Shown piece by piece: positions 1,596 to 62,894 of a DNA stretch of 64,000 bases. This DNA is from Rhynchobatus australiae. Lineage: Eukaryota. The number at the start of each line of letters is the position of its first letter. The stretch's first letter is position 1. A program made the position numbers and the translations under genes. Where the stretch lies: the NCBI GenBank assembly GCA_034780895.1, contig JAUZTB010000076.1, positions 110,836,440 to 110,900,439 on the forward strand. The letters run 5' to 3'. Below the pieces are notes generated by a model. The model ran no database searches, was not told where the DNA came from, and saw nothing but the letters and a program-made list of their open reading frames with translations.

Positions 1596-2976
1596 TGCAA
1601 ATGACTTGAGTGTTTTCTAGCTGGTGAATAAAAAATATCAGCCAATGTTTCCATCCAGTGACTCTTGTTGCTGCAGCAACACCGGATTTCGGTAAGAACA
1701 AGAAGGTGTTTGGCCAGATGGCTCCCAGCAGTCAACATTCATTTTCTGGGCTCACACTTGAAGAGATTTCAACCAAATACACCATAAACATAACCCAGGA
1801 CAGGAGGGTATAAAACATAAAGTTGTAAACTCGCAAGGTCAACAGAAATGAATCTGCATCATTTGTGCTGTTCATCCAAGTTCAGGGCAGCTGAAAATGT
1901 GAGGGAGCAGCTGCCAATGTAGCAGGCAATATTTCAAGAGTGACAGTGTCTTGTTTTACAAGTGTGAACAGCCTATAAAGAGCCATGATTGACAAGTGTT
2001 CCAGGTGCCAGTGCGTCTCAAAGCTTTCTCACTGCTAAGTAAGTAAATCCAGTAAGGCACCGAGCTGGAGTGATCTGCCCAGATTTTGATGTTGCTTGTG
2101 AGGGGGATATTGAGTGTTGTTCCAATATTTAGAACGTAACGTTGAAGGGGTTTTGCTTGTTAGAGCTTGTTAGATTAAAAAATGTTGTGCATGATTGTTT
2201 GTGAAATCAGAGAGTAGGGACCTTCTCAAATTGCTGGTGTGTCCCCTATTTTTAGCTGTCCACTTTGAGGAGGAAGTGATGAAGAAGTGTCTCATTACCC
2301 TCAAATTTTTCATAGAACTGTCTTCAAGGTCATCACCCTTCTCAGGAAGCAAGTTAACAAGCACCTTTAGAACTGTTGAATATTGAAAGACTGCACAATG
2401 TAGAGTGGGGGGCTGAGGACTTAGATATATAGGATACCAGAACACAGAGTGCATGATACGACTGTCCTGAAATGGCCATGACACTGAAAGATATGCATTA
2501 ATTAGTCAGAGAATCCGAAACTCTGAGAGACTGGTAGCTTTCCTGGGATATCACTGAATGCTGGTTGAGGCACATCTGCAACATCATCATCAGGAACTTC
2601 AGACAGATCTCACAGCATACGGAATCTCTGCCTGCATACCAAGGAGCACAAAGACTGGGGTATGCTGCTTTATGGTGAGAGTTACTACTCCATTTGTTCC
2701 ATGAGGCTGCACCAAAGCCCTACAGGCATGTCACCGGTGGGATTACAGCTCAAGGAACTTCAGGACCACTGTGTCAAAGGTTCAGAATAATCCAACTCCA
2801 AAAGATACATGGAACACCAGGGCACAGCAGCATGAAAAGCAGTACAAGGCGATTCACGAATAATATTGTTTTTTTTCATTTGTAGTAAGGTTGACTGGTC
2901 GCTGTTTCTCAGCTGCACTCTTTTTCTTATTATCTGATCTGTTCACTTGTTTTACTGTATTCAAGGAATAAATAAA

Positions 2977-3220
2977 GGGGCAGCACGGTAGCATTGCAGT
3001 TAGCGCGACACTATTACAGCGCCAGCGATCGGGGTTTGATTCCTGTCGCTGTCTGTGAGGAGTTTGTATGCTCTCCCATGTCTGTGTGGGTTTCCTCCGG
3101 ATACTCCGGTTTCCTCCCACATTCTAAAGACATACAGGTTGGTTAATATGGGGTTTAAAATGAGCAGCGCGGAATCATTGGGCTGGAAGGACCTGTTACC
3201 ACGCTGTAAGTAAAAAAAAA
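2977..3220 (+). mobile_element. tRNA-derived V-domain SINE with CR1-type tail
   Basis: Head ggggcagcacggtagc, B-box-like ggtttgattcc, V-domain core ggagtttgtatgctctcccatgtctgtgtgggtttcctccgg...ggtttcctcccacatt, tail gggctggaaggacctgttacc, then an A-run. Confidence 0.85.
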
Positions 3221-34045: not shown

Positions 34046-34629
34046 GTGTAAATTAAAATCTTCTTTGTTCTATATTAACAAATCTGAAATGGAGATTTTC
34101 TACAACCAGTGGTCAATATAAGGATATATTTGCTCCATCATCCTTATCATTTAAATCTAATATTTGTCTAGATATCCGCCTCAGATTAGTTTGATATTTG
34201 ACACTGAGAATATCTGGTGTTTGGGGAAACTTTTGAGAATTCTTTGGGATGCAATGGTCTTGAAATNNNNNNNNNNNNNNNNNNNNNNNNNNNNNNNNNN
34301 NNNNNNNNNNNNNNNNNNNNNNNNNNNNNNNNNNNNNNNNNNNNNNNNNNNNNNNNNNNNNNNNNNAATGGTCTTGAAATAATAATTGGTCTGCAAAGAC
34401 CAAGAGGGACAGAAAACTATTTGCTTTGCCCTACTCTGGTTGTAAGGCCAGATTTGTCCTCAATATTTATGCTACAAAAGTTTTTCAATTCATTTCCAAG
34501 TTGCATCTCCAGGTGCTCTTAAGATGTAACCGAAGACCATGACATCATGCACCCTGCTATGCTGTAACACCTCTGTAAAAACTAACTCTTGCAAGCAGTT
34601 GCAGGGAGGCAGTCAAATGAAATACAATC

Positions 34630-35479
34630 TGTTACGGACTAGGACTATTAGTGAGTGTCCCTTTAAGATTGTGTGTGTGTGTGGCGTGCTTACGTCAACA
34701 GAAGATAAACAACGTCATGATGTTGTTGTTGAAACAACCAGTCTGAGTCAGTCTGAAGGAGAGAGACAGAAGAATGAGAGAGAGAGAGCAGCCTGCTTGT
34801 TTTCTCTATCGATGGATGAAAAACAATAACTGTGACTGTCACTGCAATCCACGCATGGATGTTAAGAGTAATCCGGTGGAGTTCACTTTGTCGGTAACCT
34901 GTGGAGGAAAACAGGTATTTGGGGTGGATGGCCACGGTACGGATACTCTAGGGTGTGGCAGACACATTGAAGTGAAGAAGTGGAGTTCACTTGGTTGTTG
35001 ACCTGTGGAAGGAAACAGGTATTTGGGTGGACAGCCACGTTTCGGATGTTTTCGGGGTGAGGAAGTCACTACCGAGTAGACATTGAGGTGTCATTTGGGC
35101 TCCAGAGCGGAACATTCAAGAGCCTTTCAGAGAGAGAGAGGAAGATGCGGTGGAGTCGTCACTGCTGAGTAAACACTGAGGAGTCGTTTGGGATCCATCG
35201 TGGAACACTTGGATTCCGTAATAACTCTCTATTTTCTCTCTACATCTACGTTTTATCTCCAGACAATGGTGGTTGTTGAAGAAGCCTTTACTCATGTTTC
35301 ACCTNNNNNNNNNNNNNNNNNNNNNNNNNNNNNNNNNNNNNNNNNNNNNNNNNNNNNNNNNNNNNNNNNNNNNNNNNNNNNNNNNNNNNNNNNNNNNNNN
35401 NNNNAAGTAGTTATTAATAAAGAAGATTTTAACACTTATACATGTCTCGGTGTGTTTCTTTTGTTGCTGGTTCGTAACA
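34630..35479 (+). mobile_element. Long terminal repeat (ERV1- or Gypsy-like)
   Basis: Starts TGTTACG and ends CGTAACA (perfect 7-bp terminal inverted repeat, TG...CA). AATAAA at 35416-35421. Followed after 3 nt by a tRNA-Pro PBS, TGGGGGCTCATCCGGGAT (35483-35500). Contains a 100-N gap (35305-35404). Confidence 0.85.
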
Positions 35480-35482
35480 AAT

Positions 35483-35551
35483 TGGGGGCTCATCCGGGAT
35501 GTGAACTCGGGACCTCTTGCACCCCAAGCGAGAATCATACCCCTAGACCAA
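35483..35551 (-). pseudogene. Reverse-transcribed copy of mature tRNA-Pro (positions ~7-76 including CCA), contiguous with the LTR PBS
   Basis: The minus strand reads TTGGTCTAGGGGTATGATTCTCGCTTGGGGTGCAAGAGGTCCCGAGTTCACATCCCGGATGAGCCCCCA. It has 5 mismatches in 69 nt against the recalled vertebrate tRNA-Pro(AGG)+CCA and lacks the first 6 nt (GGCTCG). Confidence 0.9.
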
Positions 35552-36622
35552 ACCATTTTGGGGAAAGGTAAATAATTTTCTCTCCCCAAGACGCTGCTGT
35601 TCCCTCTCCCATGGGATGTCCCCTGCCCCACACTGAAGAAAGTCTCTCTGAGGCCGTTTCTCCCACGTTGTTGCTCTTACGTAACAAATCTCATTGGCCA
35701 GTTCTTTAAGTCAGCAAAGCAATTAGAAACTGTTGATTGCTTTTGGACATCTTTGCCATGCTTGTTTATTTTAATTGTACTGTATATTCTTTATGATTTG
35801 TCTAAACAGCACAGTGAAAGAATCATTAAAATAAAAGATCCAAGATATACTGGGATCACTGAGTTTATTTGATCAAATAATGCTAATGGTAGCTTGTCTC
35901 GTAGAAATCTGCACATTCCCCTGCCCAGTGAGTCCCTAGTCCCACAGTGAGTCAGAGACCCTGATTCTTCCTTGGATTTCAGTCAGCCAGAGACTCCTGC
36001 CACTCAATTGGCTAGTGTGCTGAGAAGTTTTGGCTGCCTGCTGGTGCAAAGATTCCTGGCTCCAGCTGCGCAGTCAGAGACTGGGTGGGCAGGAAGTTGC
36101 CAGCTTGGAAGCTAATGAGCATCTCCACAGGTCCAGCCATCTACTGAATTGTAAAGCAGGTAAGTGCCTGCAGCTTGGGCCGTATCTGCTGGTCAGTGGG
36201 TCCAGTGTTCTGGCCCAGTGGGTTTGATGGAGTAGTTGTTCAAAATATTTTGCAGTCCCCGAAACAAAGGGACGTACAATAGAAAATTCAGTGGGGGATC
36301 TTGTCCAAAGATTCGTTAGTATGTGGACTGACTACTGCAATGAGTAGTTAAGGAAACTAGCATTTATGCTTTTGTGAGAAAGCTGGATAAACATCTAGAA
36401 AAAAGAAGCTGGGGATTATGCTGATGGAGTGAGATAAAATAAGATGGCAAAAGCTCGTCTGGTGTAAATTTTATGAAAATGAAACACAAATGTCATACTT
36501 TGTAAATCCAGTAATTATACATCGCAGCAATATCACCAGTAATTGTCTGTTGTTCCATAGAACAATTTTGATTAAACAATTTAAAATATTGCTTTTCTTG
36601 TGTTTTTGTTTCCTTTTTACAG

Positions 36623-36745
36623 CTCTATGGTTTTTGCTACCAGGATAGCAATCACATTGCTGACACATTAACCACTATTACAGAGCTTGGATCCCCTTTG
36701 GAGATGATTCAGCTTTTACAGACCTCATGGGAGGAGAGATTTCGA
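36623..36745 (+). CDS. PKDCC: PKDCC coding exon 2
   Basis: Pyrimidine tract and acceptor tttttacag|CTC. 123 nt encoding [41 protein letters not shown]. Donor CGA|gtaagt. Phase 0/0. Not in the ORF track; read by hand. Confidence 0.96.
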
Positions 36746-48021: not shown

Positions 48022-48312
48022 AAGATTTCTTTATTAGCCACATGTACATCGAAACACAGTGAAATGCATCTTTGCGAAGGATGTTCTGGGAGCAGCCCAC
48101 AAGTGTCGCCATGCTTCCGGCGCCAACATAGCATGCCCATACCTCCTAACGCGTATGTCTTTGGAATGTGGGAGGAAACCGGAGCACCCGGAGGAAACCC
48201 ACACGGTCACGGAGAGAACGTACAAACTCCTTACAGACAATGGTCGGAATTGAACCTGGGTCATTGGCGCTGTAATAGCTTTACGCTAACCGCTACACTA
48301 CCGTGCTTGCCC
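48022..48312 (-). mobile_element. V-domain SINE with Rex-like tail
   Basis: Reverse complement of the head, V core (ggaggaaaccggagcacccggaggaaacccacac) and tail gatgcatttcactgtgtttcgatgtacatgtggctaataaagaaatctt. Confidence 0.88.
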
Positions 48313-48499
48313 TTGTTTCCCTTCCTCATTTTTTTCTCTCTCTCATTATTTCTTCCTTTCCTCTCAGTCTTTTGCAATTTTCTTCCCTTTGTCTCTGTCG
48401 ATCATATCTCATCTTCTGATATTTTGTTGTCTTTTTCTGTCTCAATCTCTTGATTTTTGCCCTGCGTGATTCCAAAATTCCAATAATGGAATTAAGAAT

Positions 48500-49314: not shown

Positions 49315-49620
49315 GGGCAGGCACGCTAGTGTAGCGGTTAGCATTTTCCCTGTATCCATTGCTCTTACAGCGCCAACGACCCGGGTTCAATTCCGGCCGC
49401 TGTCTGTAAGGAGTTAGTACCTTCTCCCTGTGTCTACGTGGGTTTCCTCCAGGTGCTCTGGTTTCCTCCCACATTCCAAAGACGTACAGATTAGGAAGAT
49501 GCAGGCATGCTGTGTTGGGGCCAGAAGCGTGGTGACATGTGTGGGCTGCCCCCAGAATACTCAAAAGGTGCATTTCACTGTCTATCAATGTACATGTGAC
49601 TAATAAAGAGATCTTATCTT
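49315..49620 (+). mobile_element. V-domain SINE with Rex-like tail
   Basis: gggcaggcacgctagtgtagcggttagc, B box gggttcaattcc, V core, tail gcatttcactgtctatcaatgtacatgtgactaataaagagatcttatctt. Confidence 0.88.
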
Positions 49621-60365: not shown

Positions 60366-60990
60366 GCAGCACAGTGGTGATGCTGCATAGCTCCAGCAAT
60401 GGGGCATCACAGTAGTGTAGCGGTTAGTGTAACACTATTACAGCCCCAGCGACCCGGGCTGCTGTGTGTAAGGAGTTTGTACGTTCTCCCCGTGTCTGCG
60501 TGGGTTTCCTCCGGGTGCTCCGGTTTCCTCCGGGTGCTCCAGTTTCCTCCCACAGTCCAAAGCCGTACAGGTTAGGAGCTGTGGGCATGTTATGTTGGCG
60601 CTGGAAGAGTGGTGACGCTTGCGGGCTGCCCGCAGCACATTCTCAGTAACGCAAAAAGATGCATTTCACTGCGTGTTTTGATGTACATGTGACTAATTAG
60701 TAAATATCTTGTATCTGGGTTCAATCCTTACCTCCAGTGCTGCCTGTGTGGAATTTGCATGTTCTCTCTGTGACTGCACTGGTTTCCTCCCACATCCCAA
60801 AGACGTGATGGTCAATTGGCCACAATAAATTGCCCCTAGTGTGACAGTGAATTATAGAATCTAGGGGGAGCTGATGGGAATTTGGGGAGAATAAAGTGGA
60901 ATTGGTGTCAGATTATTATAAAACGCATGTCCTTGATGGTTGTCACAGAGTCAGTGGGCCGAAAGGCCTGTAGTGTGCCATATGGTTGGT
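60366..60990 (+). mobile_element. Older V-domain SINE interrupted by the 60401-60715 insertion
   Basis: Head gcagcacagtggtg...ctccagcaat (60366-60400) resumes at 60716 with tgggttcaatcc (B box), V core, taaattgcccctagtgt and the CR1 tail gggccgaaaggcctgt. Confidence 0.7.
60401..60715 (+). mobile_element. V-domain SINE with Rex-like tail, nested in an older V-SINE
   Basis: Head ggggcatcacagtagtgtagcggttag, V core with a duplicated ggtttcctccgggtgctcc, tail gatgcatttcactgcgtgttttgatgtacatgtgactaat. Confidence 0.85.
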
Positions 60991-62659: not shown

Positions 62660-62894
62660 TTATTTACAACGTGTTAACAGGCCCTTTCAGCCCAACAAGT
62701 CCGTGCCGCCCAATTTACACCCATATTAACTTACCCGTACGTCTTTGGAATGTGGGAGGAAACCGGAGCACCCGGAGGAAACCCACGCAGACATGGGCGA
62801 ATGTACAAACTCCTTACAGACTGCGATGGGAATCCAACCCCGATCGCTGGCGCAGTAATAGCGTCGTGCTAACTGCTATGCTACCGTGTTGCCC
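62660..62894 (-). mobile_element. V-domain SINE with CR1-type tail
   Basis: The reverse complement matches the 2977-3220 copy over head, V core and tail (aatatggg...gggctgaaagggcctgttaacacgttgtaaataa). Confidence 0.88.

Follow-up and report, generated by a model that had tools for sequence, protein, structure and literature searches.

The window, a stretch of 64,000 nucleotides of Rhynchobatus australiae DNA, was found to hold an element of 1,057 nt that contains a 69-nt complement of tRNA-Pro (tRNA positions 76 to 7). The element consists of a full LTR, the trinucleotide AAT, the tRNA copy, 123 nt of host sequence and a rebuilt LTR end, in this order and all on the forward strand, and is flanked by a 4-bp target-site duplication. 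The left duplication, AATC (34626..34629), has the 4 bp that are the norm of the family and is followed by the LTR (TGTTACG...CGTAACA, 34630..35479) of a Gmr1-like Gypsy family, which begins at the U3 start and has a gap of 100 N inside it (35305-35404). The TGTTACG start at 34630 is the same start that is found after the polypurine tract in a normal copy of the family (L107); by contrast, no polypurine tract was found upstream of the window LTR. The spacer AAT (35480..35482) separates the LTR from the primer-binding site (PBS) and lies within a junction pattern that has 69 exact matches. It is followed by an ordinary 18-nt PBS for tRNA-Pro positions 76-59 (35483..35500) and by the read-through copy of positions 58 to 7 (35501..35551), which stops one base before G6. 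A single A (35552..35552), which matches neither G6 of the tRNA nor the source of the next segment, was likely untemplated or misincorporated at the stop. The captured low-copy host sequence (35553..35675) derives from a GC-rich locus family on contig C81, and its last bases are the microhomology TTGTTGCT (35668..35675) with the LTR end. The rebuilt LTR tip TACGTAACA (35678..35686), an integrase attachment end, equals the LTR-end variant of many copies and is followed by the right duplication, AATC (35687..35690).

A sequence-only reading of this DNA had described a tRNA-Pro complement of 69 nt that extends from behind CGTAACA and AAT to tRNA position 7, and this complement is present at 35483-35551. 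Likewise, all five of the differences it had named were recovered by comparison of the window copy with a reference genomic Pro-AGG gene (L014): G at position 58 (35501 T>G), C at position 34, likely from inosine, which makes the anticodon GGG (35525 T>C), and three other transitions, two of them at CpG (35492 G>A and 35518 C>T) and one not (35507 C>T). The TGG opposite CCA, which had been taken as a further trace of read-through, is present but is not evidence, since every normal 18-nt PBS has TGG; the evidence for read-through thus lies in positions 58 to 7. Beyond what had been described, the element was found to run 135 nt past the tRNA copy and to end in a second LTR tip and a duplication.

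The tRNA-Pro genes of the genome match the tRNA copy of the window at E about 1e-19, far beyond chance. No tRNA was reported for the window by ARAGORN and Rfam, probably because positions 1-6 are missing. The A box of the copy is intact and its B box has C58. A tRNA gene was rejected as an identity for this copy, in which positions 1-6 are absent, CCA is encoded and an LTR follows.

Elsewhere in the window, an open exon-like stretch (36623-36745, forward strand; LYGFCYQDS...) has splice-like signals on both sides, so the element is likely intronic and on the same strand. The stretch was without a Pfam match and presumably resembles the kinase PKDCC. SINE-like dispersed repeats, 75-93% alike, are located at 2974-3152, 48078-48314, 49361-49496, 60398-60575 and 62720-62894; we take them to be of the kind seen in cartilaginous fishes.

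The parent retrotransposon family

The LTR end has 3582 exact matches in the genome. A SCAN domain (PF02023) was detected in L185 (E=2.3e-10) and L181 (E=8.3e-07), together with a zinc knuckle (PF00098), and L185 (= L080) has the same LTR end and PBS as the window element. Further internal copies were located by use of the gag-protease DNA of L108, to which they are 78-86% alike. The domain order was rve, RVT_1 and RNase H in L200 and integrase C-terminal domain followed by RVT_1 in L202, and integrase was found directly after the protease region in L188 and L182. An integrase that precedes reverse transcriptase (RT) is a mark of the Gmr1-like clade. A class I endogenous retrovirus, as suggested by the tRNA-Pro primer and 4-bp duplication, was rejected, since the pol order of endogenous retroviruses is protease-RT-RNase H-integrase and here the integrase lies upstream of RT. 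Judged by its gag and pol domain content and its gene order, the parent family is Gmr1-like Gypsy; SCAN-domain gag has been noted in Gmr1-like Gypsy elements (PMC4131045, in the part of the text available).

Among 20 solo LTRs that were fetched, six had both ends visible and five of these displayed a 4-bp duplication. A full-length parent was sought downstream of 11 copies with a normal leader, and only broken or gapped ones were found. The normal leader (oriented positions 40-170 of L107, and other copies) is built of ~33-nt units in a variable tandem array; every unit contains a partial PBS of 11 nt along with an AACGAG/GACGAG motif, the complement of tRNA positions 3-8. The first bases of this leader resemble tRNA 55-51.

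The captured host segment

A genome search with the 123-nt segment returned three matches: the segment itself, L031 (C81:1644889-1645012; 90%, query 2-124) and L032 (C81:1779740-1779794; 96%, query 69-123), the latter two in a GC-rich region. L031 and L032 are inverted paralogous GC-rich loci 135 kb apart, and both have the captured segment and a CAAAATGGC motif. The C81 source runs on into TTGTTGCTGG, which is also found just inside the LTR end, and it is at this microhomology that the window copy changes over to the new LTR tip. Between L031 and the LTR end the microhomology is 10 nt, the last two of which differ in the window copy. An ATG in CAAAATGGC context and a possible splice donor are present at the source locus, but it yielded no conserved protein and was therefore not called a gene.

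The antisense inserts of element sequence described below and the known patching by packaged host RNA suggest, by analogy, that a co-packaged host RNA likely served as template for this segment. Template switching of this kind is reported to patch host RNAs in (PMC4997597, in the portion of the article available). Transcription of the C81 locus is putative, and a template used in DNA repair is a possible alternative to RNA.

Number and independence of the read-through copies

At least 66 LTR-linked read-through copies are present in the genome, 52 found first and 14 fetched later as a hold-out set. Exact LTR and PBS junctions numbered 69 (73 minus four duplicates); 30 run into tRNA, 38 into the normal leader, and one (L062, with a 3-nt extension) is ambiguous; additional searches brought the read-through copies to the first 52. 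A second selection, also of 52 copies but picked by junction patterns alone, blind to positions 58 and 34, is referred to here as the blind set. L061 and L070, which had appeared to be read-throughs to position 51, were dropped because of the leader's resemblance to tRNA 55-51. Read-through copies make up roughly 1-2% of the family's LTR ends, an order of magnitude only, since the search patterns differ in stringency. Their share among PBS-bearing copies is 43%, a value that is probably too high, since normal elements drop out of the count when they collapse to solo LTRs or lie in gaps.

When the first 52 copies were compared, none of the 1326 pairs had downstream sequence in common, and two LTR-end variants were found among them (28 and 20 copies, with 4 unscored). 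The best reading of these sequences is that the copies are separate insertions from repeated independent events. The sequence-only reading had considered a propagating family, repeated read-through or a single accident, and the genome-wide junction search pointed to repeated independent read-through, with varied endpoints, position-58 bases and downstream sequence. Its view of the window copy as a fossil of RT reading through its own primer is supported by this series of copies with differing right-hand parts. A tRNA-derived SINE was rejected, as no common body continues after the tRNA head. An element of the TRIM/Helenus type was also rejected; the window element has one LTR and a 9-nt tip, and the right-hand parts of the copies differ in the pairwise test.

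Position 34 and the tRNA-Pro gene census

Position 34 is reached by 33 copies of the blind set, with C in 27, A in 5, G in 1 and T in none; among the seven copies of the hold-out set that reach it, C was found in 5, A in 2 and T in none. By contrast, the 24 gene-like Pro loci had A34 in 10 (two with a changed position 36), U34 in 13, C34 in one and G34 in none; this census, which includes locus L023, is a lower bound in a gappy assembly. With no gene-like Pro-GGG locus among the 24, the C at position 34 indicates that A34 primers were likely read as inosine, i.e., always as G. A record of inosine 34 in the copies, as the earlier reading had proposed, is strongly supported by these counts. Primers with UGG and CGG anticodons were used too, such that three anticodon types occur among the copies, and the inosine type is more common in the copies (27/33) than among the gene-like loci (10/24; P=0.002).

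Inspection of 29 exact GGG matches placed 23 directly after an LTR end and 2 with LTR pieces nearby, and 4 (L102, L142, L151 and L156) had no LTR match within about 1.5 kb. Gene hallmarks (intact 5' end, no CCA, oligo-T terminator) were absent in all 29. Three full-length CCA-bearing copies (L002, L020 and L096) were called tRNA-Pro(ggg) by ARAGORN. Loci with GGG and an encoded CCA, which the sequence-only reading had set against its own interpretation, do therefore exist, but they abut LTR sequence and on that arrangement are read-through copies and not genes. Several dispersed tRNA-Pro gene-like loci (L116-L131), some of them degenerate, have common flanks and form a repeated unit; some are miscalled or missed by ARAGORN.

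Position 58

In the blind set (n=52), position 58 was T in 45 copies, C in 5, G in 1 and A in 1. Bases other than T were thus found in 7/52 at this position versus 2/231 at other T columns (P=1.3e-4), and the window copy is the only one with G. The m1A58 modification makes a strong stop, and the RT of M-MLV reads through tRNA-Pro without m1A58 (PMC8599865, in the part of the text available); RT that bypasses m1A misincorporates (PMC4787781, likewise in part). The sequence-only reading had taken the G of the window copy as a record of m1A58. The counts across copies indicate that a misincorporation trace of m1A58 is real at the population level only, and the single G of the window copy is on its own weak evidence and could be a later mutation. 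The C at position 58 could also have been templated by the element's own leader, as C is both the commonest first leader base (25/38) and the base in 5/7 mismatches.

Endpoints along the tRNA

Endpoints in the 52 copies of the blind set were distributed with 4 at positions 44-54, 14 at 37-43, 8 at 14-36, 11 at 8-13, 13 at 7 and 2 at 1-2. Stops at 37-43 occurred at 4.8% per nt versus about 1% (P=7.5e-5, for an interval chosen post hoc), and several of these ends (41-43) fall 3-5 nt short of position 38. We take tRNA-Pro to carry m1G37 and m1G9, near the endpoint clusters at 37-43 and 8-13. Mismatches were detected in 0/37 copies of the blind set at G37 and in 0/18 at G9, such that the primers were either unmodified at these positions or the modifications only stop RT. 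The lack of errors at 37 and 9, together with the 87% of copies that are correct at 58, suggests that under-modified primers were the ones read through. Retroviruses are reported to package immature tRNAs (PMC4997597, in the portion available).

The most pronounced stop lies just before G6, with 13 of the 15 copies that reach position 7 ending there. Of 17 copies with this endpoint, 13 have A as the next base, 4 have T and none has C; these 17 overlap the blind set and include two copies without an adjoining LTR. In human tRNA-Pro, G6 is a substrate for m2G formation in vitro, and m2G is described as undetected by any high-throughput sequencing method (PMC8599901, in the text available). Since m2G is invisible to such methods, an 87% stop before G6 exceeds what is expected of m2G alone, and m2G6 is a candidate cause of the block. 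We also considered that the 5' strand of the tRNA pairs with the AACGAG/GACGAG leader repeats, but this would put the stop nearer to position 9.

Right ends and integration

An LTR-like tip followed within 700 nt by the left 4-mer was found in 9/17 copies with a visible U3 start (chance P about 1e-11), and in the hold-out set a rebuilt tip and duplication were found in 1/3 scorable copies. Combined, 10/20 scorable copies have a rebuilt tip with duplication and 10/20 are without one within 700 nt; most copies are unscorable at the right end because of assembly gaps. In L005 the duplication comes after a decayed tip and was not counted in the 9/17. The tip is the U5 end in the window copy, L017, L098 and L209, and the inverted U3 start in L011, L013, L060 and L100. 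No polypurine tract was seen by eye in the upstream flanks of the 17 copies.

Downstream of the tRNA, 11/52 copies of the first set continue with a segment antisense to the LTR, leader or internal region of the element; among them is L100, whose insert is antisense to internal sequence of the family. The segment is clearly sense in 3/52 (L019, L021 and L060), three further sense matches are short or unclear, and 35 segments have no match. Fold-back and multi-switch junctions are present in L028, L065 and L060.

Several loci are of more complex structure. L044 (G000:C1:97342156 region on C2) is a mini-element that jumps back to the U5 end and has a normal leader, so tip rebuilding is not confined to read-through products; L209 is likewise a mini-element. 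In L024 (G000:C62:1324440-1327508), the tRNA-Pro copy is followed, with a CCAA overlap at the join, by ~45 nt that resemble the CCA-ended sense 3' half of a second tRNA; behind these lie a run of A, the polypurine tract of the element and an LTR end in inverted orientation. We take the second tRNA piece to be tRNA-Leu-like. In L060 (G000:C70:8730980-8734005), a sense piece of tRNA ~50-70 after the tRNA copy has a mismatch at position 58 where the first copy has none; its template was therefore likely a second read-through cDNA. Further along, L060 contains U3 in both orientations and a 4-bp duplication.

Proposed origin of the copies and alternatives

We consider it very probable that the copies are products of repeated primer read-through by a Gmr1-like Gypsy element, followed by template switching and integration by integrase, and that they are by-products without function. 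Plus-strand DNA, primed at the polypurine tract, would start at U3 and copy the LTR and then the mature tRNA-Pro primer, mostly in its inosine (AGG) form. Position A58 would be passed either because it was unmethylated or by bypass with error. Stalling would occur around m1G37 and around m1G9/m2G10, and most of all immediately ahead of G6 (likely m2G6), in many cases with addition of an A. The free 3' end would then jump to element RNA, to plus-strand DNA, to the minus strand or, as in the window, likely to a co-packaged host RNA. A template jump is expected at this step since the tRNA tail has no complement on the minus strand, such that no normal second transfer can occur; the principle that a tail without a match to the minus strand blocks second transfer is given in the available parts of PMC8599865 and PMC11251516. 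An LTR tip would be rebuilt by a final switch, either at a microhomology or to the U3 start, and integrase would join both valid tips to produce the 4-bp duplication. The plus strand would be continuous from U3 to the new tip and be fixed by host repair or replication. Copies that lack a tip may have been integrated at one end only and completed by host repair.

Read-through might instead have been followed by integrase joining at the left end only and polymerase-theta-like end-joining at the right, with the pieces copied from DNA. The scorable copies without rebuilt tip and duplication are in keeping with this, as are the 35/52 right segments without a match to the element copies tested and the junctions of L028, L065 and L060. 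End-joining cannot, however, explain the window copy and 9 others in which the 4-bp duplication stands, without mismatch, behind an LTR tip, and the L100 insert has the antisense orientation expected from copying element RNA. As an account of the whole series this explanation is unlikely, but some members of the family may well have arisen in this way. That the series descends from a propagating subfamily or SINE with an inherited GGG tRNA-Pro copy, made once, would fit the frequency of C34 (27/33) and the 13 copies that end alike at position 7, but is largely refuted by the 0/1326 pairs alike downstream. Three anticodon types, more than 20 endpoints, both LTR variants and the unrelated leader of 38 ordinary copies also argue against common descent, which we regard as very improbable.

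We attach a similarly slight probability to tRNA retrocopies made by LINEs, or to copies of an unassembled Pro-GGG gene, that landed at LTR ends. Six GGG-type matches are without a directly adjoining LTR end (four without an LTR within about 1.5 kb), and the gappy assembly, in which the census is a lower bound, leaves room for such a gene. The 23/29 GGG matches that begin directly after an LTR end in PBS register are not expected of target-primed insertion, and gene hallmarks were present in 0/29. It is barely credible that the assembly joined LTR, tRNA and host reads by error: although contigs are short and the window LTR encloses its 100-N gap, 35405-35690 is free of gaps and the duplication agrees across the LTR gap, the junction recurs at 66 loci, and genes never have C at position 34, so their reads could not have supplied it. 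Primer read-through with template switching and integration is thus the explanation retained here.

Significance and comparison with known systems

Products that were supposed to be dead ends have, on this explanation, been rescued on at least 66 occasions and fixed in the germline, many of them with correct integrase ends. Such a series would provide in vivo data that are otherwise hard to obtain, on the isoacceptor choice of a Gypsy primer and on inosine read in DNA, and its map of stops along the primer reveals an unexpectedly strong block before G6. It would also represent a route for host sequence and whole tRNA promoters into LTR elements, and it explains a class of false tRNA annotations, in that Pro(ggg) calls may be read-through fossils. 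A bolder proposal, which we hold to be possible though rather doubtful, is that primer read-through integration is routine and that genomes are natural fossil tRNA-seq libraries, which record the isoacceptor and its modification sites (I34, m1A58, m1G37 and the G6 block). If so, the same rescue would capture host RNA between valid integrase ends, and tRNA-headed LTR fragments would be a working source of tRNA-bearing TRIMs, SINEs and spurious Pro-GGG calls.

Read-through of plus-strand strong-stop synthesis has been described for HIV-1 and M-MLV, in vitro or in TRMT6 mutants (PMC8599865), and for HTLV-1 (PMC11251516), as far as the available text of these papers extends; the products are described there as unable to finish plus-strand synthesis and integrate (PMC8599865). 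As in the copies reported here, RT does not stop at A58 of the primer but continues into the tRNA, and tRNA-Pro was among the primers tested. By contrast, the products found here are fixed in the germline, many have proper integrase ends, and their source is a Gypsy element. Read-through of unmodified A58 and misincorporation at m1A were known already, and the germline series appears to be new to print: in the literature searched, mostly recent and open-access papers, integrants from primer read-through were not found described as a series within a genome, nor for the Gmr1-like clade. The parent family itself is like the Gmr1-like Gypsy elements, as far as the available descriptions go, in its gag with SCAN and zinc knuckle, its integrase after protease followed by RT/RNase H, and its 4-bp duplications.

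Helenus TRIMs (Kojima 2024, PMC10886601, in the text available) are similarly short non-autonomous LTR elements with tRNA sequence, and those of animals rely on Gypsy and produce duplications of 4 bp. Unlike the window element, they have the tRNA part inside both of two LTRs, a polypurine tract and the ability to propagate, and their tRNA part is not complementary to their own PBS. In the present series the tRNA sequence runs on from the PBS, and every copy is a single event.

A strong-stop-DNA model for the origin of tRNA-derived SINEs was reportedly put forward in 1993 by Ohshima and the Okada group, based on minus-strand strong-stop DNA. Unlike the DNA of that model, the copies here are plus-strand products, since they start at U3, and none was seen amplified; their minus strand reads tRNA-CCA-U5, the structure proposed there. 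Sun et al. reportedly described in 2001 (J Virol 75:11902) one provirus of a retroviral vector into which an entire tRNA and host sequence had been inserted. That provirus is reported to have a primer tRNA copy followed by a short unlinked host segment, much as the window copy does. It stems from one event in cell culture, whereas the present series comprises natural events, at least 66 in number, from which anticodon and stop profile can be read.
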